A stretch of DNA of 64,000 nucleotides from Alphaproteobacteria bacterium. Lineage in GTDB: Bacteria > Pseudomonadota > Alphaproteobacteria > Rs-D84. Location: assembly GCA_017618175.1 (NCBI GenBank), contig JAFZUT010000011.1:36656-100655 (forward strand), in the 5' to 3' direction. The notes beneath the pieces are model-generated. The model saw only the letters and a list, made by a program, of their open reading frames with translations, made no database searches and had not been told where the DNA came from. Of this stretch, positions 49,023-62,788 are shown piece by piece; positions within the stretch are counted from its first letter, which is position 1; each line of letters starts with the position of its first letter. Position numbers and translations under genes: made by a program.

Positions 49023-49057
49023 TGGCTCACCAAGGAAAATGACACACGAATTAACAG
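49023..49057 (-). pseudogene. decayed remnant of the tRNA-Asn 3' end plus a degenerate att core (outermost junction of the island array)
   Basis: TGGCTC-accaaggaaaa-TGACACACGAATTAACAG. TGGCTC matches the first 6 nt of the fragment at 62358. The core matches TGACATACGGATTAACAG at 16 of 18 positions. Confidence 0.45.
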
Positions 49058-49289: not shown

Positions 49290-49312
49290 AGTGTTAGACA
49301 AGAGGTTGATTG

Positions 49313-50509
49313 ATGCGGCTATCATCTGTGCCATATTCTCAAAATATAACTTTTAATAACTTGTCTTCGTCGCTTTCCTGCAATCAAATATTATCGGATA
49401 CCAAATTGGTTCAACAGAGCAACGCTGGGCATATCATTTATACACCAATTATTCAAAAAATTAAAAGAAACGTAGAAAACATAATATTATCACATGCCGA
49501 ATCATACGGATTCAATGAGATGCTGTTTCCTGTTTTAATGGATGCAAAATTATTAGATATATCAGGGAAAACGGATGAATATGCAAACGAATTTTATGAT
49601 ATATCTGATAAAAATGCAAATCTGGTGGTTTCGCCTACAACCGAAGAACGGCTTATAGATTTTGTTTCACGTAATGGAACTTTATCACACAAAAATTTAC
49701 CTATGCGTTTTTCACAGGTTTCGAATGTATATAGAAATTTAAAAAGACCAGAAGGATTATATAAATCACGTGAAATTTCTTGTGTGGTTTTGACGGCTGT
49801 TGATGCGGGGCGTCAACAGTATTTAGAAACAATGAAAGATTTCAGACTATTATGCGAAGAAACATTCGCCGATATTGGCATTCCTAATTTTTATATTCAA
49901 GATAAAATGTCCGGGGCAATAGAGTTTTTCTATGAAACAGAATTGGCTGACCGACCGTTGGATAAAAGTATCATAAATAATTTTGGCAACAAGAACATTT
50001 TTGATACCCAGAAACAGTATGGCAGTTTATCTATGGGGTATCCCTTTTATCAAAGTGAAAAGTTTAATTTATTTTATACCGACAAAGACGGAACACGAAA
50101 ACAGCCAATTGTAAGTACGTACGGTATCGGAACCCAACGTTGTATTTTGGTAATGTTTGAATATGCCAAGAACGGCAAACCAGATGCTTTTAAGCAAAAG
50201 GTCAGACCATTTGATGTTGATATCGTTGTGTTGGCTAAGGATAAATATAATTCACACATTCAAACACTGGCGGATAAATTGCGTCAGAATGGTGTTCAAT
50301 ATTGCATAGATGATCGTAACAACAGCATGCGAGACAAGATGCGTTTTTCTGAATTTTTTTCAGTTCCTTGTCGAATTATTATCGGTGACAAAGAGATTCA
50401 ACAAAACCAATATGCTATCAAGCCGTTGGGAGATAATGAAGTAATAACGGCAAATTTTGACAGTGCATTAAACATAGCTAAACAATTAACACAGGAGAAA
50501 GTACGATGA
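49313..50509 (+). CDS. divergent prolyl-tRNA-synthetase-like class IIa paralogue with an anticodon-binding domain
   Basis: IIYTPIIQKIKRNVENIILSHAESYGFNEMLFPVLMD...VVSPTTEERLIDFV...HKNLPMRFSQVSNVYRNLKRPEGLYKSREI parallels ProRS motifs 1 and 2, but YRNL replaces FRDE. Motif 3 is GIGTQRCILVMFE. The C-terminal HGTP-type domain is VDIVVLAKD...LRQNGVQYCIDDRNNSMRDKMRFSEFFSVPCRIIIGDKE. Confidence 0.6.
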   Translation: MRLSSVPYSQNITFNNLSSSLSCNQILSDTKLVQQSNAGHIIYTPIIQKIKRNVENIILSHAESYGFNEMLFPVLMDAKLLDISGKTDEYANEFYDISDKNANLVVSPTTEERLIDFVSRNGTLSHKNLPMRFSQVSNVYRNLKRPEGLYKSREISCVVLTAVDAGRQQYLETMKDFRLLCEETFADIGIPNFYIQDKMSGAIEFFYETELADRPLDKSIINNFGNKNIFDTQKQYGSLSMGYPFYQSEKFNLFYTDKDGTRKQPIVSTYGIGTQRCILVMFEYAKNGKPDAFKQKVRPFDVDIVVLAKDKYNSHIQTLADKLRQNGVQYCIDDRNNSMRDKMRFSEFFSVPCRIIIGDKEIQQNQYAIKPLGDNEVITANFDSALNIAKQLTQEKVR

Positions 50510-51510
50510 TAAAACCGGCATCTTCTTGGAAACAACCAGAACAACATTTAGAACAATTGCTAACAACACCATGGTATCGTGCTCTTAACAAAATATTTTC
50601 TCAAATTTTATTGTTAACGCACGATTTTTATAAAACAGAAAATATCACACCAACAATTTTCCCAATAACGACAGGTTCTGTTAGCAGCCCGTTTGGTTTG
50701 GGTAGTGATTCTTTGCCGGTTAAAATCAATATTAAAAATAATGATATGTTTTTGGCAGATTCTATGCAATTTTCGTTAGAAATAGCAACCCGTTTGAACG
50801 ACAAGGGGGCATATTATATTATGCCGTCTTTTCGTGGTGAAAATATGGATGCGCGTCATCTTAATGAATTCGTCCATTCCGAAGTGGAAATCAAGGGTGG
50901 TTTGGATGATGTTATGTCTTTGGCAGAACGCTATATTAAATATTTAATTCGTGGTTTGAAAGATACTTGTTCCAAAGAAATAATGGAAATTTGTGGCACA
51001 ACAGAACATCTGGATAAAGTGTTAAATAAACCTTTTTATAAAATAAGATTTGAAGACGCTATGTGTGAATTGGATAGTGTTTCCAATGCATTTAAAGAAT
51101 TGGATAAAGATTTATATGCGATAACATCTGTTGGGGAACGCGCTTTGATAGATAAATATGGCGATTTTACGTGGATTACGCATATGCCATATAAGTCAGT
51201 CCCGTTTTATCAAGCCAAAGAAACAGGTACAGATTTTTCAATGACAGGTGATTTGTTGGCTGGTATTGGCGAAACGTTGGGTTGCGGTCAGCGTGTATTA
51301 AGTTCACAGGATGCTATTAACTCGCTGGATGAACACAATGTTGATAAATCTGGCTATCAATGGTATATAGATATGCGTGACATCCAACAAATCCAAACAG
51401 CTGGATTCGGTATGGGTATAGAACGCTTTATTTTGTGGTTGCTAAAACACAATGACATCCGCGATTGCACACTTTTGTTGCGCGATCATAACAATGTCGT
51501 TTTTCCTTAA
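50506..51510 (+). CDS. AsnRS/AspRS-type class IIb catalytic-core protein without the OB anticodon-binding domain
   Basis: Motif 2 is SFRGENMDARHLNEFVHSEVE. Then comes YQWYIDMRDIQQIQTAGFGMGIERFILWLLKHNDIRDCTLLLRD, compared with YxWYLDLRRYGTxPHxGFGLGFERLV....NIRDVIPFPR in AsnRS. The protein starts directly at the motif-1 region. The ATGA start/stop overlap with the upstream gene implies translational coupling. Confidence 0.65.
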   Translation: MIKPASSWKQPEQHLEQLLTTPWYRALNKIFSQILLLTHDFYKTENITPTIFPITTGSVSSPFGLGSDSLPVKINIKNNDMFLADSMQFSLEIATRLNDKGAYYIMPSFRGENMDARHLNEFVHSEVEIKGGLDDVMSLAERYIKYLIRGLKDTCSKEIMEICGTTEHLDKVLNKPFYKIRFEDAMCELDSVSNAFKELDKDLYAITSVGERALIDKYGDFTWITHMPYKSVPFYQAKETGTDFSMTGDLLAGIGETLGCGQRVLSSQDAINSLDEHNVDKSGYQWYIDMRDIQQIQTAGFGMGIERFILWLLKHNDIRDCTLLLRDHNNVVFP

Positions 51511-52475
51511 TGTTTTATAACAGTTAAAGAACCATCTGATATATTAACCGTCCCGCCCAACGGTAAAACTGTCATTGGATAGGTATGTCCAAAATCCACA
51601 TTAGCAATAACAGGGATATTTTTTAATTCTGGATGAATATTAAATATAGAAACTATATCATCTTTTGATATCTCACTTTTGCTTTCTGTACGACCAATTA
51701 TCAATCCGCGAACATTCTTAAACCACGGTTGATGAATAGTAGATTGCAGAATTCTGTCTAAGATGTGTTTATTACCACCTTCTATTTCTAATGCCAAAAT
51801 TAAATTATTATCAGTTGGTATATATTGTGTGCCATATAATAATTGAAATGTTGTCATTTCACCGCCAATCAAAGCCCCAGTGGCAGAACCAGAATTTATA
51901 ACCCAAAATCCATCGTTTTTATTAAAATGTCTGTCTTCTTGATTCATAAACCATTCTGGATCGTCGCTCCATTCCTGACATGATTGAACGGAAAATTCTG
52001 AATCATCAAATAAAATTCGTCTTAAATAATCAAGAGTATAATCTGCGCCATATTTCATACCAAGGCTGGAAAAATGTGGCCCATAATATGAAACAATACC
52101 TGTTTTTGCCAATATCGCGTTTTGTAATGCCGCGATATCAGAATATCCGATTAACATTTTTGGATTTTGCTTTATCAGTTCATAATCTATTGAATCTAAT
52201 AATTGGTTTGAATTAAAACCGCCAATAACAGTAAAGATTGCTTTTACATTCTTATCAGTATACGCATCGTGCAAATCTTGTATTCTGGCATCAATTGGGG
52301 ACGAAACAAAAGAATCAATGATACCTAAATTTTTACCAAAAGATACTTTTAATTCCATTTGTTCAAGACGTTCTGTAGCAATTTTTCTAACATCTTCACC
52401 TATGATTTGGTATGAAAAAGCAGGAGCAATAATGCGCACTTCATCGCCTGCTTTTAATTTTCGTGGAAAAATCAT
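51507..52475 (-). CDS. S66-family serine peptidase (LD-carboxypeptidase / microcin C7 immunity MccF family)
   Basis: LKAGDEVRIIAPAF near the N-terminus, nucleophile motif IGYSDIAAL, and C-terminal NVDFGHTYPMTVLPLG (catalytic His). I cannot tell LdcA from MccF by eye. Confidence 0.7.
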   Translation of the reverse strand: MIFPRKLKAGDEVRIIAPAFSYQIIGEDVRKIATERLEQMELKVSFGKNLGIIDSFVSSPIDARIQDLHDAYTDKNVKAIFTVIGGFNSNQLLDSIDYELIKQNPKMLIGYSDIAALQNAILAKTGIVSYYGPHFSSLGMKYGADYTLDYLRRILFDDSEFSVQSCQEWSDDPEWFMNQEDRHFNKNDGFWVINSGSATGALIGGEMTTFQLLYGTQYIPTDNNLILALEIEGGNKHILDRILQSTIHQPWFKNVRGLIIGRTESKSEISKDDIVSIFNIHPELKNIPVIANVDFGHTYPMTVLPLGGTVNISDGSLTVIKH

Positions 52476-52489
52476 TCTCGTCTCCTTGT

Positions 52490-53314
52490 TTAATTGTTTG
52501 TTCCAAATACAAAGATATTATTGCCACGTGCCGCAATATCGCCATTTTTGATATGTTGTTTTTCCATATCAAAAATTTGTTTAAATATTTTTTTATTTTC
52601 CAGTATGTCAGCAATTTCGCCCGTTTGTCCACGTAATTGTGTTTCTTGGTAACCCGGATAAATCAAATTTGGAAACCCTGAACAAAAATCTACTTTGATA
52701 TTATGCTTTTCCATTATGTTTTTAATACTGTCTGGTGAAAACATATTGATATAAGGCATTTGGTCTGTAAAACGTCCAGAACCAGATAAACATTTGTTTG
52801 CTTCGTCTACGTTGCCCAGTTTCGTATTAAAGAACGCAGCATGATACATATTTGGAGCCAGTGTGCAAATTATGCCACCTTTTTTAGTTATAGATTTTAA
52901 TTGGTCAAAGAAATTATCAATATCTGGTCCAACAAAACCGATAACATTGTGAAAATTGAACACGAAATCAAATTGTTGTTTTATATCTGATAAATCATTC
53001 AGATCTTGTAATATAAAGTTCCATCTGTCTTTATATGGTGCGGATTTTTGTTTTGCGACATCTAGCATTTCTTTGGAAAAGTCTATGGTAACACCAGAGC
53101 ATTCAGGAAATTCTTGTAATAATTTTTGTGACCATCGACCAGTTCCGCCACCCGCATCACAAAATCTAAAATTTTTCGGTAATTTTGGAATGATATATGT
53201 TTTTATAGAGTCCCATAACAAAGCATCAGATAAACGCCAGTAACTTTGATTTTCTACAAGATCATATTCAGAGGCTTTGTCGGCAAAATATTTTAATACG
53301 GATTCTTTGTACAT
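52490..53314 (-). CDS. class I SAM-dependent methyltransferase
   Basis: Motif I FCDAGGGTGRW, acidic post-I residue in VTIDFS, and motif II-like FDFVFNFHNVIGFV. Confidence 0.75.
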   Translation of the reverse strand: MYKESVLKYFADKASEYDLVENQSYWRLSDALLWDSIKTYIIPKLPKNFRFCDAGGGTGRWSQKLLQEFPECSGVTIDFSKEMLDVAKQKSAPYKDRWNFILQDLNDLSDIKQQFDFVFNFHNVIGFVGPDIDNFFDQLKSITKKGGIICTLAPNMYHAAFFNTKLGNVDEANKCLSGSGRFTDQMPYINMFSPDSIKNIMEKHNIKVDFCSGFPNLIYPGYQETQLRGQTGEIADILENKKIFKQIFDMEKQHIKNGDIAARGNNIFVFGTNN

Positions 53315-53330
53315 GCTTCACCCCTTTTGC

Positions 53331-54608
53331 TTATTTGCATTTGGTTTTTGTTACAAGTTGAATTAAATCAGAAACGCTCATTTGTTGAGTATTTCCTGTG
53401 GCACGGTCTTTTATTTCCAAATTACCGGTATTGAAAAAGTTTTTCCCGGCAATTATTTTATTTGGGATACCAATCAAATCGCTTTCTGCAAATTTATTTC
53501 CACCACGAACATTTTGCCGATCATCATACAGCAAATCAAAATTCGCGTTTTGTAATTGATGATATAAATTTTCAACCTGTGCCATTTCGGCATCTTTAAT
53601 CGCTAAAGAAATTAAATGCCATTCAAACGGGGCTATTTTTTCCGGCCACACCAAACCTTTATCGTCACTTAGACATTCTGCAACAGTTCCCATAACGCGA
53701 CTTGGGCCAATACCATAACACCCCATAATAACAGGTTTTGTTTGACCGTCTTTATCAACAAAATTGGCATTAAATGGTCCTGTAAAACGTGTGCCCAGTT
53801 TAAATATATTTCCTACTTCTACGGCGCGTCTTTGTTCAAAAGAATTTTCCATACCATCTGTGTAATTTGGAACAATGTCTCTTAAAGCCGCCTTGTCATC
53901 AATGATTTCGCGATTGATGGCTATTTTCGTTCCTGGTAAAATAAAGATTGTATCTTCACCGGCATCAGTCAATGTTTGAAATTCATGTGAATATTTTGCA
54001 AAAGCACCACCACTGGCATATGTAAAATATGTTTTATCGCCAATGCCGCAATTGGTATAAAACTTCATATACATTTCTGCCACCTTATCATAGTAAGAAT
54101 CTAAATCTTCTTGTGATGCGTGAAACGAATATAAGTCATTCATTCTAAATTCTTTACAACGAAACAACCCAGATTTAGAACGTGGTTCGTCCCTGAATTT
54201 ATTTTGAATTTGAAATACAGACATTGGTAAATCTTTATAAGAAGAAATAAAATTTGTCACAAATGGCGTAACAACTTCTTCGTTCGTTGGGCTTAAAGCA
54301 TAATCTTTATCGCCATGACCTTTTATTTTATATAAAACATCTATTTTATCCCAGCGTCCTGTTTTGTGCCATACATCTGCAGGTTGCAAAACAGGCATAA
54401 TAACTTCTTGACCATTTACTGTCATCATATACTGACGGATTAAATTTTCAATTTTGTTTAATGTTCTATAGCCCAACGGCATATACGAATAAATTCCGCC
54501 CATCAATTTATGAATAAAGCCCGCGCGTGTAAGCAGCTGGGCATTTTTAGACATTTCTTGGTTGTTAAATTCTTTTTGGGTTTTATAAAATAAACTACTT
54601 TGACGCAT
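53331..54608 (-). CDS. proS: proline--tRNA ligase, short bacterial form without the INS editing domain
   Basis: AGFIHKLMGGIYSYMPLGYRTLNKIENLIR...ALSPTNEEVVT...YKDLPMSVFQIQNKFRDEPRSKSGLFRCKEFRMNDLYSF (motif 2), GCYGIGPSRVMG (motif 3), and a C-terminal HGTP anticodon-binding domain. 425 aa. Confidence 0.85.
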   Translation of the reverse strand: MRQSSLFYKTQKEFNNQEMSKNAQLLTRAGFIHKLMGGIYSYMPLGYRTLNKIENLIRQYMMTVNGQEVIMPVLQPADVWHKTGRWDKIDVLYKIKGHGDKDYALSPTNEEVVTPFVTNFISSYKDLPMSVFQIQNKFRDEPRSKSGLFRCKEFRMNDLYSFHASQEDLDSYYDKVAEMYMKFYTNCGIGDKTYFTYASGGAFAKYSHEFQTLTDAGEDTIFILPGTKIAINREIIDDKAALRDIVPNYTDGMENSFEQRRAVEVGNIFKLGTRFTGPFNANFVDKDGQTKPVIMGCYGIGPSRVMGTVAECLSDDKGLVWPEKIAPFEWHLISLAIKDAEMAQVENLYHQLQNANFDLLYDDRQNVRGGNKFAESDLIGIPNKIIAGKNFFNTGNLEIKDRATGNTQQMSVSDLIQLVTKTKCK

Positions 54609-54828
54609 AGTATAGGCCTTTTTGTATGTTCTTTTAGTACCTACCTCTCTTTTGATTAGAGTAGCATGGCAAAGAAAAAAAGCAAGTTTTTTAAAAATGG
54701 TTTTACTGTGTAGCTAATATGTAGATTTTTTGCTTTTGGTGGTAATTAGCCACAAAAACACAAAAAAATTAGCAGACACACGGACTAAGGTTCGGTTTTC
54801 TTCGGTTTTTAAGAGGTTGTTTGTTGTG

Positions 54829-54850
54829 ACATACGGACTAGTCCGTATGT
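54829..54850. repeat. perfect 22-nt palindrome built from half of the att core
   Basis: ACATACGGACT|AGTCCGTATGT. With the preceding TG it shares TGACATACGGA with the 18-nt core TGACATACGGATTAACAG. Confidence 0.9.
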
Positions 54851-54964
54851 TTTGATATGTTTTTTGTAAAAATGGACATTTTTTGACTTTTGCAAACAGT
54901 TAATATTTAAACGAAATTCCGCAGAAATCCGCAATATTCAGCGTATGTAATTTGTCTATAAAAC

Positions 54965-54982
54965 TGACATACGGATTAACAG
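54965..54982. repeat. 18-nt att-core direct repeat (copy 2 of 3)
   Basis: TGACATACGGATTAACAG, identical to 62385-62402. It is the reverse complement of the tRNA-Asn anticodon-loop/variable region CTGTTAATCCGTATGTCA. Confidence 0.9.
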
Positions 54983-55260
54983 CTGCCCCTCAATGAATAT
55001 TTATTTTAATGTGCTTGAGTGTAAACCTAACGCCTTGTGTGCCACAGATGCCGTGGTGTTGAGGGATTTGGTTTTGTTTGGATTTGACTTAAAATGACAC
55101 AAAAATTTGTTCTAAAATTGTCCCAAAATATAACCTCTGTGTAGACCTTTTTTAAGATAGCAAAAAAGCCTTACAAAGCCCGATTTGACTGGATGTGACT
55201 GTATAAAGATAGTGTAGATTTGTATTTAAAAATTCACTTTATTTGTTAACAGAAATTCTA

Positions 55261-55289
55261 TTGCAAAAAACATAATTTTTTATTATGTT
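55261..55289 (+). promoter_or_regulatory. sigma70-like promoter
   Basis: TTGCAA (55261-55266), 17-nt spacer, TATGTT (55284-55289). Confidence 0.4.
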
Positions 55290-55324
55290 AAATTTGAAAA
55301 AATAATCTAAAGAGGTATATGATA

Positions 55325-55753
55325 ATGACGTGGTCTGATTTCTTTTCGTCTCAATTATTTGGGATTATTCTTGGGGCATTATTGACATCCGGTTTTACAT
55401 GGTTTGTAGACTTTTTAAAAAGCAAACGAGATAGGGGACTTTATATAAAACAAAAACGAGAAGAATTATATATCAATGTGTGCCAGGTTTTAATGGAACA
55501 TGAAAAGTATCGTCGTTCCCATGAATGGCCAAAGAAATGTAAAACAATGTTTAATGCATTGCAGGGGCAAATGTTGATATATGCATCTAAGAAGATTTAC
55601 GGTGCATACTATGCTTTGGATACAGAAATATGTAATTGTTACGATACAATGCGTAGTCAAAAGCAGATAGAAGCAAAATCAAATGAAATAGCAGATAAGA
55701 TAGTAAAACTAGCAACTAAAATGCGTAAAGAGTTGGGGATAAAGGGGGGGTGA
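55325..55753 (+). CDS. hypothetical single-pass membrane protein
   Basis: The second ATG is chosen for its spacing from AGAGG. TM helix LFGIILGALLTSGFTWFV, then a helical K/E-rich domain. Confidence 0.5.
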   Translation: MTWSDFFSSQLFGIILGALLTSGFTWFVDFLKSKRDRGLYIKQKREELYINVCQVLMEHEKYRRSHEWPKKCKTMFNALQGQMLIYASKKIYGAYYALDTEICNCYDTMRSQKQIEAKSNEIADKIVKLATKMRKELGIKGG

Positions 55754-55965
55754 TGTTGTGTTTCTGTGAATCGTGTATGTTTTCTCAAAAAATATATACT
55801 AATTTCAGCACGAAAATCACATCTAAAATCTAACCTGAAATCAAGATTGATAATTTAGTTAATAACAATACTGATTTCTAGAAAAAATAAAATTTCTGTT
55901 TTTGTACGGGTGTGTCAGAGGAAAAAACAATTTTTAATATTTTCTGTTAAAAACGAAAAAGACTA

Positions 55966-55993
55966 TTGAAAAATATGGTTTTTTTGTTATATT
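55966..55993 (+). promoter_or_regulatory. sigma70-like promoter of the three-gene operon
   Basis: TTGAAA (55966-55971), 16-nt spacer, TATATT (55988-55993). Confidence 0.4.
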
Positions 55994-56018
55994 TCATATT
56001 GAAAAAGGATATTTGATA

Positions 56019-56633
56019 ATGAGAAATTGGTGGTATTCATTTGTTGAACATTTTAGAACTTGTTCCTCATGGTTTGGGGCGATAGTTTCTTGGTTGGCTA
56101 TTTTTTTCGTTTTTATTACAGCGATGGTTGTTTTTGCTAAGCCGTATGTATCTCGGATTTATGCAGATACTTATATAGTGGCAGATACAGATATAAATTT
56201 AGTTACAGAAAAAGATAGAAAATCGATAAATAATTTAATAATGAAAAACAAAATTGTGCCGGTTTCGATTGTATATGAAGATACACTTAGGTATTATGAG
56301 GAAATAATAGCAATTTTAATAGCTTTATTAGGTGTGTTTGCGGTTGTTTCTTGGTTTTTTATGGGTGGACGTATGCGAGAGGGCTTGCACAAAGAAATTC
56401 AATCAAAATGGTTTGATATTTGTTTAAATGACAAGATGTCCAAATTATTAAAGTCTGATATGGGGGATTATTTAGCTGAACAATTTGATGATGAAAAAAT
56501 TCGAAGTATAGCACGTGAAGAATTTGAAGGTATGACTAATAAGCTTTCCGATGATTTACAAGAAAAGAATAATGCTGTGCTGCATCTTAAACGAAATTTG
56601 CGGGTAAGATCAAAAAAAGTGGGAGGTAAATAA
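56019..56633 (+). CDS. hypothetical two-pass membrane protein (first gene of the ImmA/beta-protein operon)
   Basis: ATG 56019 lies 9 nt after AAGGA. TM helices FGAIVSWLAIFFVFITAMVVF and IIAILIALLGVFAVVSWFF. Its stop overlaps the next start (TAATG). Confidence 0.5.
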   Translation: MRNWWYSFVEHFRTCSSWFGAIVSWLAIFFVFITAMVVFAKPYVSRIYADTYIVADTDINLVTEKDRKSINNLIMKNKIVPVSIVYEDTLRYYEEIIAILIALLGVFAVVSWFFMGGRMREGLHKEIQSKWFDICLNDKMSKLLKSDMGDYLAEQFDDEKIRSIAREEFEGMTNKLSDDLQEKNNAVLHLKRNLRVRSKKVGGK

Positions 56634-57199
56634 TGGCTACAGATTTGTCTAATTGGTCAAATTTTATCTCAAATAAAGATATTGAAACTTATGCAAAAAA
56701 ACAGAAAAAGAACAACGTATCTAAGACGTTAAGTGCTCAAGATGTCTGGACCGCTGCGTTAGAAGCAAAAAAAACAGAACCGTTAGATATAGAATGGGTT
56801 GCAGAAAAATTATTTGGCTTAAATGTTGTGAAAAGGGATTTAGGAGAAGCTTCAGGTTTTTTAAATGTGTTGGATGATCAGTGGTGTATTTTTGTTAATA
56901 AATTTGAAAACGAACGGAGACAACGTTTCACTATTGCTCATGAACTAGGACATTTCGTATTGCATAAAGACAAGAGCATAACCTCAAAAGATATTATATT
57001 TTTTAGAGATGAGAATACCAATATTGAAGAACAAGAAGCAAATAATTTTGCTTCAGAGTTATTGATGCCTGAAAGAAAGATTCGTGAATATATAAAAGAG
57101 GGATATAATACAATATCTTTGTTGGCAGATAAGTTTTGTTTGTCGACACCTGCAGTGCGTTATAGACTTTACAAACTTGGTTTAATATCGGAGTATTGA
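56633..57199 (+). CDS. ImmA/IrrE-family (M78, DUF955) zinc metallopeptidase
   Basis: FTIAHELGHFVLH (HExxH) followed by EEQEANNFASELLMPERKI, the family's second signature. Confidence 0.8.
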   Translation: MATDLSNWSNFISNKDIETYAKKQKKNNVSKTLSAQDVWTAALEAKKTEPLDIEWVAEKLFGLNVVKRDLGEASGFLNVLDDQWCIFVNKFENERRQRFTIAHELGHFVLHKDKSITSKDIIFFRDENTNIEEQEANNFASELLMPERKIREYIKEGYNTISLLADKFCLSTPAVRYRLYKLGLISEY

Positions 57200-57201
57200 T
57201 T

Positions 57202-58332
57202 ATGTCAAAATATTGTTATTTCCCGATACTGAAAACACGCCCGTCAGAAGTCAATGCTTACGACTCTTTGGCAGATAATATTAAAGAAGAGGTGTTGCCT
57301 ATTATTGAAATGACGGGAGAACTTGGTTATACATATTCTAAAAATTGTAAAGATGAAAATTGCAGAGGAGTTAGACGCCCTGGGGATATAAATAAAAAAA
57401 TTACGAAAATTTTAGATTTTATGGGGAATAAAAGGTTTGTTTTAGATATAACAGATGATTCATCTTTGAAATATGATGGTTTAAGCGCCACAGGGAGTGG
57501 TTTGTTGAATCCAAATAATGGATATAGAAATTGGCTAGATTTTTTACAACGAAACGATACTTTTAAACGTTTAGTAATTCCTACAATTCAATTTGACACA
57601 ACCTATCGGCAAGATGTACAAATGCAGATAGAAGAATTAAAAAATCATTTTGATTATATGGCTATAAAATTACCATCTACAACGGATGCCAAGATTATAA
57701 ATCAGGTTATAGATTTTGTTACTAATATTATAGGGGTAAATAAATTATTTGTGATATTAGATTTTGATTTTATAAAATCTTTTACCCAAAAAGAAACGTC
57801 TGAATATGTAAAGCCAATCGATGTATCAAAAATAAAAGCTTTGATCCCTGTCTCTTCTAGTTTTCCTGCATCGGTTATACACATAGATAAAATTTGTGGT
57901 AGTATAGATATTTTAGAAAACCAACTCAGTGATTGTATAAGACAAACCTTGGGAAATAAGGTTTTTCATGGTGATTTTTCTTCTATACACCCAACTCGTT
58001 ATGAGATGGGCGGCGGAGGTTGGTACCCAAGAATAGATTATATAGAGAGAGATTTACGAACAAAAAAACCTATTAAATATCATTTCTTTAGAGGAACTGG
58101 CCGAAATACCAGTTCTGAATATGTTGAGTTAGCAAAACGGGTAACAGAAGCTAAAAACTATGTTCCCATAAGCGAATTTAATGTAGCCGGAGATTTGCAA
58201 ATTAAGAAAAAAGCCAAAGGAGAAATGGAAGGTAAGGCACCTTCTTATTGGATTGCTGTAAGATCTAATCTTTATCTAACCATGCAGTATTTATATTTGA
58301 GAAGACAACCGGATGCTTTTTTGTATTTGTAA
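57202..58332 (+). CDS. 'beta protein'-like (PF14350 / sce7725-like) protein of unknown function
   Basis: The N-terminus YCYFPILKTRPSEVNAYDSLADNIKEEVLPIIEMTG fits the Y.P.LK.K.GE..AL..L.......PLIE pattern I remember for this family. GGAG lies 8 nt upstream of the ATG, and the gene is coupled to the ImmA-like gene. Confidence 0.45.
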   Translation: MSKYCYFPILKTRPSEVNAYDSLADNIKEEVLPIIEMTGELGYTYSKNCKDENCRGVRRPGDINKKITKILDFMGNKRFVLDITDDSSLKYDGLSATGSGLLNPNNGYRNWLDFLQRNDTFKRLVIPTIQFDTTYRQDVQMQIEELKNHFDYMAIKLPSTTDAKIINQVIDFVTNIIGVNKLFVILDFDFIKSFTQKETSEYVKPIDVSKIKALIPVSSSFPASVIHIDKICGSIDILENQLSDCIRQTLGNKVFHGDFSSIHPTRYEMGGGGWYPRIDYIERDLRTKKPIKYHFFRGTGRNTSSEYVELAKRVTEAKNYVPISEFNVAGDLQIKKKAKGEMEGKAPSYWIAVRSNLYLTMQYLYLRRQPDAFLYL

Positions 58333-58942
58333 TATAATTTAAATCCTCAAGTATGACCTTTTGCCCTTTTTCTTTAAGAAATAATTTATAGCCATCTCCA
58401 TAGCGTCTTTGTAAAGATATGATTATTTGATTTTGAATGTTCACTGTCGTGCATTCTTCGATAGCTCTTTGTTTAAGTTGTTCAAATGCGGATTTTTTAT
58501 ATTTTGGTAGCAACTTTTCTAAATCTTTGCGCCATAGAACAGAAGTCATATATGTTTTATCTAAGGAAATTTTTTTCCTTGCTTTTCTTTTTAATATTAA
58601 CTTGTTGTCGGAGCTTATTACTATAAGGCCTATGTTTTTTGGTAGTTTAGTAAGTTCCTTAGATTTTGCAAATTTGCACGAGTAAACCAAATAAACAAAA
58701 TTGAAAGTTTTTCGGTAATCTGATATTTGATCTAGCATAGTTTTAAGATTGTCGTATTTGCTTTTAATTTCAAAACCTATGGACATTCCATTATTTATCG
58801 CGACAAGATCTGCAGAACGTTTACAGCACAAAAACGGCAATTCGTTTACTATCAGCTCATATTTAGCGTGTTTAAGCAGAAAGTCAATAAGCTCTGCTTT
58901 GATAAAATTTGCTTCTCCGTATTTCCCCTTTTTTAATCCCAT
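58265..58942 (-). CDS. PD-(D/E)xK-fold nuclease-like protein (MmcB / sce7726-like)
   Basis: RSADLVAINNGMSIGFEIKSKYD gives a D...E-x-K arrangement. It is the last gene of the minus-strand operon. Its 3' end overlaps the convergent gene by 68 nt. Confidence 0.45.
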   Translation of the reverse strand: MGLKKGKYGEANFIKAELIDFLLKHAKYELIVNELPFLCCKRSADLVAINNGMSIGFEIKSKYDNLKTMLDQISDYRKTFNFVYLVYSCKFAKSKELTKLPKNIGLIVISSDNKLILKRKARKKISLDKTYMTSVLWRKDLEKLLPKYKKSAFEQLKQRAIEECTTVNIQNQIIISLQRRYGDGYKLFLKEKGQKVILEDLNYITNTKKHPVVFSNINTAWLDKD

Positions 58943-58983: not shown

Positions 58984-59526
58984 TTAATGTTGTGTTGGAA
59001 CAGGTAAACCAAACTTTTGTAATGGGATATATTCAAAATAATATGAACAACCGACCGAAACTATATAATCTAAGACATCTTGATAACAAGGTTGTTTGAA
59101 CCAGTCGCTTAATAAGTAAATATACTCAACTTCCATGTTCAACTGTGACAACAATTTTTTATATTGTTTTTTCTTGAAATCACAAGTTTGCAATTTTTCG
59201 TCTACAGAACCGGCAACACGTTGAAACTTACATTCAATAACAAAAAACGTGTTGTTTATAACAACATAAATAGAATCATCCGGTAATAATTTCTTAGATA
59301 AAATAGATTTCCAATCAATTCCACGATATTCTAAAAATTTATATAAAGCAGATTTCTTGAATATTGATGCGACTTCTTCGCCTTTATATAACACTGACAC
59401 CCAACCGCGTTTATCATCAACACAATTGTACCCTGGTTGTGAACATAAAAATGTACGCAAATCAGTTTTACCTTCAAAAACTAAACCTGTTTTGGTATTT
59501 GCTCCGCCAATTCCGTTCGCTTTCAT
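58984..59526 (-). CDS. putative type II restriction endonuclease (PD-(D/E)xK motif)
   Basis: LPDDSIYVVINNTFFVIECKFQ (D...E-x-K). Its ATGA overlaps the upstream methylase gene, in the position dpnB occupies in DpnII-type cassettes. Confidence 0.45.
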   Translation of the reverse strand: MKANGIGGANTKTGLVFEGKTDLRTFLCSQPGYNCVDDKRGWVSVLYKGEEVASIFKKSALYKFLEYRGIDWKSILSKKLLPDDSIYVVINNTFFVIECKFQRVAGSVDEKLQTCDFKKKQYKKLLSQLNMEVEYIYLLSDWFKQPCYQDVLDYIVSVGCSYYFEYIPLQKFGLPVPTQH

Positions 59527-60308
59527 TTTTTATCCTTTTTTTCAGATATATCATATAACCTTTTTTCAGCCAGTTCAACAAATTGTGGCTCTTGGTCTAT
59601 ACCCACAAATAGACGGCCATGTTTTAATGCTGCAACCCCCGTCGTTCCACTGCCCATAAACGGATCTAAAATCAAGTCGCCTGGATTTGTAGAAGCCAAA
59701 ATAATGCGTTCCAACAATTCCACTGGTTTTTGAGTCGGGTGTTTGCCAAATTTCTTTTCTTCTTTGGTTGGCGTTCCAATAGCCCAAACACTTCGCATTT
59801 GGCAACCTGGCTTTTTAATAAAGTCTTTTTGGAAATCTCCATTTTTCATGGCTTCATAATTAAATGTGTGTTTTGCTTTTTTATTTTTGCGCGCCCAAAG
59901 CAATGTCTCGTGGCTTGCGGTAAAGTACCTGCAGGACATATTCGGACTGGCATTTGGCTTAAACCAAGTTATGTCGTTCAAAATATGAAAACCAAGTAAT
60001 TGCATAGCAAATCCGCACGAATATATGCTGTGGTATGTGCCGCTAATCCACAATGTTCCATTTGGTTTCAAAACACGATGACATGCACAAAGCCACTTTT
60101 TATGAAATTCAAAATCATCACTAAGACCATGTGATTTATCCCAATCGCCTTTGTTTACAGACACAACGCAACCATTTTGACATGTGATACCACCATTAGA
60201 AAGCATGTATGGAGGGTCCGCAAAAATCATATCAAATGTATTTTCTGGAAGTTCAAGCAACTTTTCAAGGCAATCTGCACAATAAAGACGATACTGTTTC
60301 TTAGTCAT
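59523..60308 (-). CDS. beta-class N6-adenine/N4-cytosine DNA methyltransferase (DpnA-like)
   Basis: Motif IV FADPPY comes first. The SAM-binding motif LDPFMGSGTTGVAA is near the C-terminus, which is the beta-class order. Confidence 0.8.
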   Translation of the reverse strand: MTKKQYRLYCADCLEKLLELPENTFDMIFADPPYMLSNGGITCQNGCVVSVNKGDWDKSHGLSDDFEFHKKWLCACHRVLKPNGTLWISGTYHSIYSCGFAMQLLGFHILNDITWFKPNASPNMSCRYFTASHETLLWARKNKKAKHTFNYEAMKNGDFQKDFIKKPGCQMRSVWAIGTPTKEEKKFGKHPTQKPVELLERIILASTNPGDLILDPFMGSGTTGVAALKHGRLFVGIDQEPQFVELAEKRLYDISEKKDKK

Positions 60309-61233
60309 AATTTGTAATCAATAATTCACGAATTGCATCACGACCGTCTGCCTTGGAATTGATAAGACGTCTGGCCAAAATACGGTTAATTTTATAATCT
60401 TTGTATAAATCATCAAAGAACGGGTCTTCAATATAATTGGTTGGGTCTGAATTGCTCAACATCTGCAAAGCCCCCATTTGGTGACATGTGTCAAAGACCT
60501 GTTTCAAACGTTCCTGTTCAGCATCGTCAAAATCACCCACGGCATAAGAATTGAAAGATGATGTTTCACGAATTGGACGATATGGAGGGTCATAATAAAT
60601 GAATGTGTCAGCTTTTACATAATCTGGTGTTGCGCCAAAGTCTGCTTGTATAATAGTAGCAATTTGCAAAGCTTCGGATACGTTGCGTAAGTTTTCTTCG
60701 TCCAAGATACGTGGGTTTGTATATTTGCCCATCGGAACATTGAATTTGTTTTTGCTGTTTACGCGGAACAAACCATTAAAGCATGTCCGGTTCAAGAATA
60801 TCGTTAGGGCAGCGCGGCGAACAAAACTTGTGCGGTATACATTGGCATCAACATTTTTATCACAATCGTTATATTCATCGCGTCTGGCATAATAATACGC
60901 CTTTGTATCATCTGTATGTCTGTATTCGGTCTGAATCTTGGTCAACTCAACAATCAAACTTTCCACATCGCGTTTTATAACGTTGTAAAGAATCACTAAT
61001 TCTGGATTGATATCAAATAAAAACGCTTCCTGGATTTGATATCTATTGTATATGTCAAAGAATACGGCACCGCCACCAACAAAGGGTTCTATATACCGTT
61101 TGATGCCCCCCATCTTTAGTTTCAAAGGAAGTTTTTGTTCAATTTGTTCCAACAATTGCCCTTTGCCGCCGGCCCATTTTAACACAGGGCGGCATTCTGT
61201 ATAATCTGGCAATCTGGCTGGTATCGCTATCAA
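60301..61233 (-). CDS. Dam-family (alpha-class, D12) DNA adenine methyltransferase
   Basis: LKWAGGKGQLL, EPFVGGGAVFF (motif I), then YYDPPY (motif IV). The start is TTG, 6 nt after GGAAAGGA. Confidence 0.85.
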   Translation of the reverse strand: MIAIPARLPDYTECRPVLKWAGGKGQLLEQIEQKLPLKLKMGGIKRYIEPFVGGGAVFFDIYNRYQIQEAFLFDINPELVILYNVIKRDVESLIVELTKIQTEYRHTDDTKAYYYARRDEYNDCDKNVDANVYRTSFVRRAALTIFLNRTCFNGLFRVNSKNKFNVPMGKYTNPRILDEENLRNVSEALQIATIIQADFGATPDYVKADTFIYYDPPYRPIRETSSFNSYAVGDFDDAEQERLKQVFDTCHQMGALQMLSNSDPTNYIEDPFFDDLYKDYKINRILARRLINSKADGRDAIRELLITNYD

Positions 61234-61293: not shown

Positions 61294-62025
61294 TTAGAAT
61301 TTTAATATAACATCGGCTATCTGTTTCACGTCTTTCAAAGTCATACTAGCCTGCATATTCAAGCCCCTTGGAACATTGATTTCAAGTATCTTATCAGCAG
61401 TTTCTTGTGTGATATTTAACCAATTTATTATCTTCGTAGTATCAACGATAAAAATATTTTGAATATAAGTTTTATTTTTATCTGGGATAAAGAAACAGGT
61501 TATGGTTTCGGGACCATGATGCTTAACTATTTCCGCGTACCGCCTCAAGTCCAACCATATGCTATTCCCCTTTTTTATTTCTATATTTACCCCATTGCAA
61601 ACAGCATCGAAATATCTGTTTTCTTGGTCTTGCCATAGTGTTTCTTTGCATAAATCTTTTTCATAGGTGTTAGGGCGCTTTACCCAATCACCAACAAGCT
61701 TTTTATCTAATGTCGAAATTATCAGTTCTTTCCAATTACTTTGCACTTTACAAATCCTATACGACATAATTCTATCATATATGACATGTTTTTGCAATTG
61801 TGATGTATCCGTATTTATGTGTATGTGTTTCCACAAAGCAGCCATTTGAAATAATTTGTAATACAAACGGCGAAATAACCAAGTTTGTTTGCAAGTTAGG
61901 TTGTCGTTTTGTTTATGGCGCACATTCGATTCCAATTCGCGCAAAGATCGGCATGCTGCGAAGTAGAGCATGATGAAATCGGTTTTGTGGTTTGGTTTGA
62001 TATCTTTAAAATGTTTATACTTCAT
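61294..62025 (-). CDS. hypothetical protein with a PD-(D/E)xK-like motif (first gene of the methylase operon)
   Basis: RYFDAVCNGVNIEIKKG (D...E-x-K). RBS AAAGGGGTGG. Confidence 0.35.
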   Translation of the reverse strand: MKYKHFKDIKPNHKTDFIMLYFAACRSLRELESNVRHKQNDNLTCKQTWLFRRLYYKLFQMAALWKHIHINTDTSQLQKHVIYDRIMSYRICKVQSNWKELIISTLDKKLVGDWVKRPNTYEKDLCKETLWQDQENRYFDAVCNGVNIEIKKGNSIWLDLRRYAEIVKHHGPETITCFFIPDKNKTYIQNIFIVDTTKIINWLNITQETADKILEINVPRGLNMQASMTLKDVKQIADVILKF

Positions 62026-62357: not shown

Positions 62358-62402
62358 TTGGCTCGGGCAACTGGACTCGAACCAGTGACATACGGATTAA
62401 CA
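62358..62402 (-). pseudogene. 3' fragment of tRNA-Asn(GUU), anticodon loop through CCA; an att junction, not a complete tRNA
   Basis: The reverse complement is CTGTTAATCCGTATGTCACTGGTTCGAGTCCAGTTGCCCGAGCCA. The loop, variable region and T-arm match E. coli tRNA-Asn as I recall it. The sequence 5' of it (gattttatcattaggt) cannot form the anticodon stem, D-arm or acceptor strand. Confidence 0.8.
62385..62402. repeat. 18-nt att-core direct repeat (copy 3 of 3)
   Basis: TGACATACGGATTAACAG, identical to 54965-54982. Confidence 0.9.
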
Positions 62403-62788
62403 GACCTAATGATAAAATCAAAAAATCTGCTGTAAGCCACAGGTTCCGCCGGTTTCCCGTTCTTAACATGTTTTCAGTGTGCGGATTAGTGCGCCTCACC
62501 CCAAAAACATGTCTGAGCCAGCCATATAGCACATGATATTTTATATGAAATCATTTCTGATATCAATATAAAAATGCCTGTGGATATCATTCACGATTTC
62601 AAATATGAAACAAATGCCGATTATTTATCCGATTTTGAAAATGGTTCTTATATGAAATCAAAAATAACATACCAGATTTGAAGAACGATTTATAAAAAAC
62701 AATGTAGATATTTTTAGATATTTGTGAATAGAAAAATCCGATTTTATCCATACCATAAAAAATGTACAACAAACCAAAAGGACACATC

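Follow-up and report, generated by a model that had tools for sequence, protein, structure and literature searches.

The window analysed here is a stretch of 64,000 nucleotides (nt) from an Alphaproteobacteria bacterium (assembly GCA_017618175.1, contig JAFZUT010000011.1, positions 36,656 to 100,655), and our subject is a four-gene cassette at 56019-58942 of this window. Its genes encode a membrane protein that we call X, an M78-type metallopeptidase, a homologue of the beta protein of phage P4, and a protein of the cII/sce7726 family (Table 1). The first three genes are translationally coupled on the plus strand, and the cII gene converges on them from the minus strand. The stop codon of X overlaps the start codon of the peptidase gene in a TAATG at 56631-56635, while the peptidase gene ends with TGA at 57197-57199 and is separated by a 2-nt gap from the ATG of beta at 57202. 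The coding sequences of beta and cII overlap convergently at their 3' ends by 68 nt (58265-58332). These open reading frames (ORFs), their strands, the TAATG overlap and the 2-nt gap had all been described in an earlier model-made reading of the window (hereafter the original prediction), and the sequence bears them out.

Table 1 Features of the cassette and of its surroundings in the window.
Feature	Coordinates	Strand	Basis
X (gene B), 204-aa two-pass inner-membrane protein, putative effector	56019..56633	+	hydrophobic segments, cassette position
Stand-alone M78 (ImmA/IrrE/CapP-like) zinc metallopeptidase, 188 aa	56633..57199	+	PF06114 E=1.2e-24
Beta-family protein, 376 aa, phage P4 beta homologue	57202..58332	+	PF14350 E=1.5e-31
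cII / sce7726-family protein, 225 aa	58265..58942	-	sce7726_fam, PADLOC cll
Putative promoter and 5' region of the operon	55961..56018	+	sigma-70-like TTGAAA-16-TATATT with TG extension, 55966-55993
Gene A, 142 aa	55325-55753	+	one borderline N-terminal hydrophobic segment plus helical region
18-nt direct repeat TGACATACGGATTAACAG, left copy of island segment	54965..54982	+	exact repeat
18-nt direct repeat TGACATACGGATTAACAG, right copy	62386..62403	+	identical to left copy
Probable type II restriction-modification system	58984-61233	-	Dam-family methyltransferase 310 aa, N6_N4 methyltransferase 261 aa, 180-aa protein
243-aa ORF	61294-62025	-	no family match in any library

The original prediction had placed the 376-residue product of the beta gene in a 'beta protein'/sce7725-like family; the first half of this assignment agrees with the Pfam match, and the second does not, as the NCBIfam sce7725 model matched neither the window beta, P4 beta nor two distant beta proteins at an E-value limit of 10. 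According to PADLOC, the best model was 'beta' (5e-47), followed by PD-Lambda-2_C (1.2e-11), with bit scores of 158 for the P4-type model versus 42 for the PD-lambda-2 models. A tblastn search against phage records aligned it with P4 beta at 27.7% identity over 95% of the query (E=6e-25). The AlphaFold2 (AF2) model has an alternating beta/alpha fold and was predicted with high confidence (predicted local distance difference test score, pLDDT, 94.4; predicted template modelling score 0.92). In Foldseek, only TIM-barrel proteins matched it, and weakly so (E ~5e-4 to 1e-2, query template modelling (TM) score 0.25-0.39), including old yellow enzyme, KDO8P/DAHP synthases, TrpA, TGT and glycosidases; the fold search also returned one uncharacterised phage protein at TM 0.69. 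A profile search against PDB sequences gave nothing significant, so that the fold search alone was informative. The motifs YxYFPILKT[RK], GGGW[IY]PRID and G[KN]APSYWI are kept within the clade alignment, and residues Y6, E16, D82, W111, D187, D258, R277, D279, R297, W350 and R354 are common to the clade, P4 and the Pasteurella phage Pmp11. This residue pattern suggests a catalytic or ligand-binding site.

The convergent protein had been likened to MmcB/sce7726 proteins on the strength of a D...E-x-K motif, a proposal that both profile and model searches supported. It scored 101 bits against NCBIfam sce7726_fam (cutoff 70) and 1.6e-25 against PADLOC 'cll', and in precomputed public annotation it is assigned to PF26915 Phage_P4_cII. 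A sequence search against PDB chains gave nothing significant. The AF2 model (pLDDT 85.5) predicts an alpha-beta-beta-beta-alpha-beta nuclease core followed by a helical C-terminal domain, and the core has the MmcB-like PD-(D/E)xK fold, with Foldseek matches to 3dnx (7e-5), XisH, Hjc, SfsA, Cas4, Bax1 and Cdn1. The residues E34, D45 and E58-x-K60 are kept in 34 homologues, being invariant bar one sequence at E34; D64 and Q72 are also conserved, and all six residues (E34, D45, E58, K60, D64 and Q72) are present in P4 cII.

The original prediction had also recognised an ImmA/IrrE-family metallopeptidase from its HELGH motif, and the Pfam match supports this assignment. The M78 domain contains the HExxH motif (H103-E104-x-x-H107) and the downstream glutamate zinc ligand, E133, the latter within EANNFASELLMP. 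Further, H103, E104, H107, H111, R125 and E133 are invariant across 33 homologues. Among PADLOC models the best match was capP (6e-32), followed by many RmrA models and PD-Lambda-2_B (7e-6); among PDB chains it was CapP 7t5t (2e-6), with IrrE 3dte also found. With 188 residues against ~290-300 in CapP and IrrE, the protein has no room for their C-terminal domain, and the searches found neither a match to a helix-turn-helix (HTH) domain nor a C-terminal sensor domain in it. The absence of an XRE/HTH partner, pointed out in the original prediction, was upheld: no HTH ORF was found upstream of X in 54609-56012, and domain searches detected no HTH domain in any cassette protein. A cognate HTH repressor beside the protease is likewise absent in most related loci. 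We also considered the peptidase as a divergent form of Gop, the 133-residue membrane/coiled-coil protein encoded before beta in P4. BLASTP found no similarity between the two, and on this comparison the peptidase is an additional gene and not the Gop equivalent.

The membrane protein X has the predicted two-pass topology, with two strong hydrophobic segments (residues 21-39 and 96-114), a loop of ~55 residues between them and then a charged tail, which is probably cytoplasmic and coiled-coil. Neither X nor gene A had a match in Pfam, PADLOC, NCBIfam or PHROGs. Homologues of X are the first cassette gene in most other loci, and the family comprises 82 clusters at 50% identity among 1.84 billion representatives, a small family by this count. 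X is also the fastest-evolving protein of the cassette, with a mean identity of 20% versus 31-38% for the other three (32 loci). P4 Gop is small, likewise has two hydrophobic segments plus a coiled-coil tail, and is not a peptidase. As a remote Gop homologue, X was rejected: all-versus-all BLASTP was non-significant, hhalign of the X family against Gop gave a probability of 0.8%, and the topology alone is shared. One Logan assembly (SRR30827650; L007 1070-1683) contains an otherwise identical X with a 1-nt deletion at window position 56375, which truncates the protein just past the second transmembrane segment and removes the cytoplasmic tail. This frameshift could be an assembly error or a natural inactivation of a toxic effector.

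Gene A, which the original prediction had placed beside the operon, does exist, and the upstream motifs and start context said to resemble those of X were recovered: the two upstream regions have CTATTGMAAAAA...TTTTTTRTTATRTT motifs in common, and the start context TGATAATGA is identical. It did not hold up as a conserved component, being confined to contigs of the same strain and found in none of ~35 other loci. Gene A may be a separate single-gene cargo. A scan of the region for sigma-70 promoters and terminators gave counts not above those of shuffled sequence; the promoter match in Table 1 is therefore a pointer only, and no claims about transcription rest on the scan.

To describe the distribution of the cassette, we took one genome per GTDB species, giving 31 loci, and called the four genes by hidden Markov models built from the first loci. 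The loci of beta homologues (27-74% identity), traced on their contigs, each had the same order: a protein of ~185-240 residues with no Pfam match, an M78 peptidase of 170-196 residues, beta, and a convergent Phage_P4_cII. X, M78, beta and cII were all intact in 27 of the 31 species-representative genomes, so that a lack of co-occurrence, which the original prediction had listed among its refuting outcomes, was not observed. The recurrence of this four-gene order in dozens of unrelated genomes puts it far outside what chance would give. Hosts were found among Alphaproteobacteria, Margulisiibacteriota, Opitutales, Melainabacteria/Gastranaerophilales, Elusimicrobia, Endomicrobia, Bdellovibrionota, Campylobacter, several Gammaproteobacteria and Desulfobacterota. 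The cassette was also present on a Persicobacter (Bacteroidota) plasmid and in two IMG/VR viral contigs, close to the contig ends. Furthermore, across 32 loci the four proteins show correlated pairwise identities (r = 0.83-0.92), and the four genes therefore travel as a unit.

Several loci depart from the common arrangement. The cII gene lies downstream and convergent in 25 loci; it lies upstream and on the same strand in two, namely a Campylobacter metagenome-assembled genome (MAG; L033) and a Bdellovibrionales MAG (L042), which have the order cII-X-M78-beta. The incomplete loci were a 1.6-kb contig (L025), a locus without detectable cII (L043), and two cassettes fragmented into pseudogenes, one on a Melainabacteria chromosome (L024) and the other in a Bdellovibrionota MAG (L035). 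In almost all loci with a downstream cII, the 3' ends of beta and cII overlap by 4-68 nt, and the few exceptions include the two pseudogenised cassettes; such an overlap might allow antisense regulation or transcriptional interference. On plasmid pNCHU2750c of Neorhizobium sp. NCHU2750 (CP030830.1, L046), the first gene encodes a 160-residue membrane protein with no match to the X model and a charged coiled-coil-like tail reminiscent of Gop, and it is followed by M78, beta and cII. The M78 ORF there (166 residues, L046 2968-3468) lies unannotated between the membrane protein and beta. This locus supports the view that X and Gop are interchangeable effectors and that the first gene of the cassette is swappable.

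By its housekeeping proteins the host is an uncultured alphaproteobacterium: RNase J and RecG of the window belong to 90%-identity clusters in which the named members are proteins of Alphaproteobacteria MAGs, and a Bacteroidota host, to which the promoter-like motifs had seemed to point, was rejected on this ground. In the window, the cassette lies in a low-GC region, the GC fraction falling from 0.40-0.50 to 0.30-0.36 from ~49 kb onward. As the original prediction had proposed, its segment is repeat-bounded and contains a probable type II restriction-modification (R-M) system beside the cassette, the exact 18-nt repeat occurring at 54965 and 62386. A third copy at 49040-49057 is 89% identical, and the copies divide the low-GC region into segments. 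The right repeat is followed by an excisionase-like HTH_17 gene and a tyrosine integrase (contig L003 13588-15108, corresponding to ~62789-64309 of the window), ~4 kb from the cassette. The 180-residue protein of the R-M block has a marginal PDDEXK_11 match covering 21 residues only. The gene order of this block resembles that of the DpnII cassette (two methylases, then the endonuclease). In a second MAG (L008), whose beta is 74% identical, the block is again found together with the cassette. The first ~66 residues of the 243-residue ORF are 49% identical to a small ORF in the same relative position in L008 and L015.

The neighbours in other loci included two Dam methyltransferases with RE_AlwI and GmrSD, SLFN-type helicases/PDC-S41, type I R-M subunits, AbiEii-like ATPases, Fic, integrases and the conjugation genes NikA/TraG/TrbC. 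Other loci are flanked by housekeeping genes, and several chromosomal ones (for example L009 and L014) have no mobile-element genes within 5 kb. As a raw tally of neighbours, the association with defence islands is suggestive only. A separate observation concerns the adjoining low-GC segment of the window (49310-54608, between the repeats at 49040 and 54965), which encodes two paralogues resembling prolyl-tRNA synthetase (tRNA-synt_2b + HGTP_anticodon), a 334-residue class-II aminoacyl-tRNA synthetase core (tRNA-synt_2) with no other domain match on record, a Peptidase_S66/MccF-like LD-carboxypeptidase and an S-adenosylmethionine-dependent methyltransferase. These genes may serve the biosynthesis of, or self-resistance to, an aminoacyl-nucleotide (microcin C-like) antibiotic.

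Two characterised systems bear on the function of the cassette. The gop-beta-cII system protects E. coli against lambda and P1 (Rousset 2022, PMC9122126); Gop is toxic without beta in P4, as the same paper notes; and the phage accessory gene orf184 triggers gop-beta-cII cell death (Silas et al., bioRxiv 10.1101/2023.04.06.535777). PD-lambda-2 of E. coli, also validated, has three components: a HigB-like protein, an M78 peptidase fused to Xre, and beta, there described as 'related to a P4 phage antitoxin' (Vassallo 2022, PMC9519451). In this system beta is required for defence and is not needed to neutralise toxicity, the peptidase protein being the toxic part (PMC9519451).

With moderate confidence, we read 56019-58942 as a four-gene, toxin-antitoxin-like abortive-infection cassette of the gop-beta-cII family, related to PD-lambda-2 and carried as island cargo beside a type II R-M system. 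The mechanism that we infer begins with joint production of X, the M78 peptidase and beta, which the overlapping and adjacent stop and start codons indicate would be co-translated, with cII expressed convergently. X would be a cell-killing membrane effector kept inactive by beta, a role proposed from P4 Gop, from position and from topology, because Gop is toxic without beta in P4 and X occupies the Gop position with the same topology. The peptidase may be a trigger-responsive switch that cleaves beta or the tail of X upon a phage cue. Its catalytic residues are intact in all homologues, and the HTH substrate and the sensor domain of ImmA, IrrE and CapP are absent. X would then be released, the membrane damaged and the infection aborted. 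The cII protein, with its invariant PD-(D/E)xK site, might act as a sensor of phage DNA or as a second, nucleolytic effector.

Several observations weigh against this scheme. This variant is known from its genes alone. X has no detectable homology to Gop, so that its toxicity is only an analogy, and beta is only ~28% identical to P4 beta. Beta, with its conserved charged residues and TIM-barrel-like fold, looks more like an enzyme than a passive antitoxin. Furthermore, the genetics of PD-lambda-2, with a beta dispensable for neutralising and a toxic peptidase, sit badly with a simple antitoxin role for beta and a releasing role for the protease (PMC9519451). Finally, many loci lie amid housekeeping genes, and the count of defence neighbours is a raw tally.

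The main mechanistic rival puts beta itself at the centre of the system: an active enzyme or a sensor of ligands, whose TIM-barrel-like fold would make, destroy or bind a small molecule or a nucleic-acid feature. X would here be a regulator, an anchor or a secondary effector, and the peptidase would tune beta or cII instead of releasing X. We judge this account rather unlikely, though several results favour it: the confident model (pLDDT 94.4) has fold matches to TIM-barrel enzymes only, charged residues are conserved between the clade and P4 beta, and beta is the sole component common to gop-beta-cII, PD-lambda-2 and the window cassette. That PD-lambda-2 beta is needed for defence and dispensable for neutralising toxicity (PMC9519451) also fits an enzyme. 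Nevertheless, the fold matches are weak (query TM-score 0.25-0.39) and no specific enzyme family or cofactor site emerges from them, and P4 Gop kills only without beta (PMC9122126), which is classic antitoxin behaviour.

An addiction module, stabilising an island, plasmid or prophage mainly by post-segregational killing and with only an incidental anti-phage effect, would explain the toxin-antitoxin-like operon organisation. It would also fit the repeat-bounded, integrase-linked island, the occurrences on plasmids, beside conjugation genes and in viral contigs, the pseudogenised copies (L024, L035) and the frameshifted X of one metagenome. We consider it improbable, however, as both of the closest characterised relatives were isolated or assayed for anti-phage activity and one of them is triggered by a phage protein, several loci are chromosomal without mobile-element genes within 5 kb (e.g., L009 and L014), and a protease, a nuclease and two further conserved components exceed what simple addiction needs. 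An ImmA/ImmR-type switch, in which the peptidase cleaves a repressor to induce or excise the island, would suit an M78 peptidase of the ImmA/IrrE/CapP type with an integrase and an excisionase-like HTH_17 ~4 kb off, but is very improbable given that there is no HTH repressor in or beside the cassette, that the partners of the peptidase in 27 of the 31 genomes are X, beta and cII rather than a repressor, and that the cassette occurs without a nearby integrase. The lack of a repressor, together with the occurrence of cassettes outside mobile elements, makes both of these readings less likely.

A broader proposal joins the abortive-infection reading with a more active role for beta. Beta might be the catalytic or ligand-sensing TIM-barrel core of one abortive-infection superfamily with interchangeable effectors (Gop, X or HigB-like) and an optional M78 gate. 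X-M78-beta-cII would be its widespread 'complete' version, P4 gop-beta-cII a protease-less derivative and PD-lambda-2 a cII-less derivative. We offer this tentatively, as a possible but speculative unification. The residues through which such ideas could be tested are H103, E104, H107 and E133 of the peptidase; E34, D45, E58 and K60 of cII; and E16, D82, D187, D258, R277, D279 and R354 of beta.

The cassette shares several features with gop-beta-cII (PADLOC models gop, beta and cll; Rst_gop_beta_cll in the literature). The P4 record contains gop (133 residues), beta (355 residues) and then a convergent cII annotated as a sce7726 family protein, and Pasteurella phage Pmp11 carries the same trio. 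Both the window and P4 have a PF14350 beta with a convergent cII/sce7726 protein bearing the same E-D-ExK residues, a small two-pass membrane protein with a coiled-coil tail tightly coupled before beta on the same strand, and carriage on a mobile element. Unlike P4, the window has a further gene, that of the M78 peptidase, placed between the membrane-protein gene and beta. X is ~200 residues long against 133 for Gop, with a loop of ~55 residues between its transmembrane segments and no Gop homology; no window protein matches the PADLOC gop model, which P4 Gop matches at 5e-70. Identity to the P4 proteins is only 26-28% for beta and cII, whose 3' ends overlap in the window, whereas a terminator separates the two genes in P4. 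Anti-phage activity and first-gene toxicity relieved by beta are known only for E. coli/P4.

PD-lambda-2 shares a different set of features, namely an M78 peptidase gene directly 5' of beta, a co-directional three-gene operon and an effector-like first gene. This first gene is a membrane protein here and HigB-like there; neither gene A nor X had a RelE/HigB-type match in Pfam, PADLOC or NCBIfam. The PD-lambda-2 peptidase is fused to an Xre HTH, whereas the window peptidase is stand-alone with no HTH match, and its PD-Lambda-2_B alignment spans model positions 292-365 of 402, the peptidase part only. Further, a cII-type protein is present in the window and none is described for PD-lambda-2. With CapP/CapH, ImmA/ImmR, IrrE/DdrO and the RmrA of RosmerTA, the window peptidase shares the M78 catalytic domain with HExxH and a downstream glutamate; unlike these proteases, it has neither a partner HTH repressor nor a fused HTH, and it lacks the C-terminal domain of CapP and IrrE.

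We found no published description of an M78-beta-cII variant, nor of a mechanism for beta, and the four-gene form, whose M78 peptidase stands alone and whose membrane protein is not Gop, is apparently an unnamed variant. To this extent the original prediction of an unnamed combination stands, the four-gene form having been found under no name; what does not stand is that it is uncharacterised throughout, as beta and cII are parts of gop-beta-cII and M78-beta is the core of PD-lambda-2. Its suspicion of a defence or abortive-infection module was reasonable and, in our view, right, though the module is not unprecedented. Of the three gop-beta-cII models no more than two match, and the same holds for the components of PD-lambda-2, so that current defence-annotation tools may miss this variant. 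The gop-beta-cII and PD-lambda-2 systems have been treated as separate validated systems with unexplained mechanisms, and a cassette with features of both points to one family built around beta, in which the effector can be exchanged and the protease switch may or may not be present. The cassette thus combines gop-beta-cII and PD-lambda-2 features, and both of its halves have precedent in named, validated systems.

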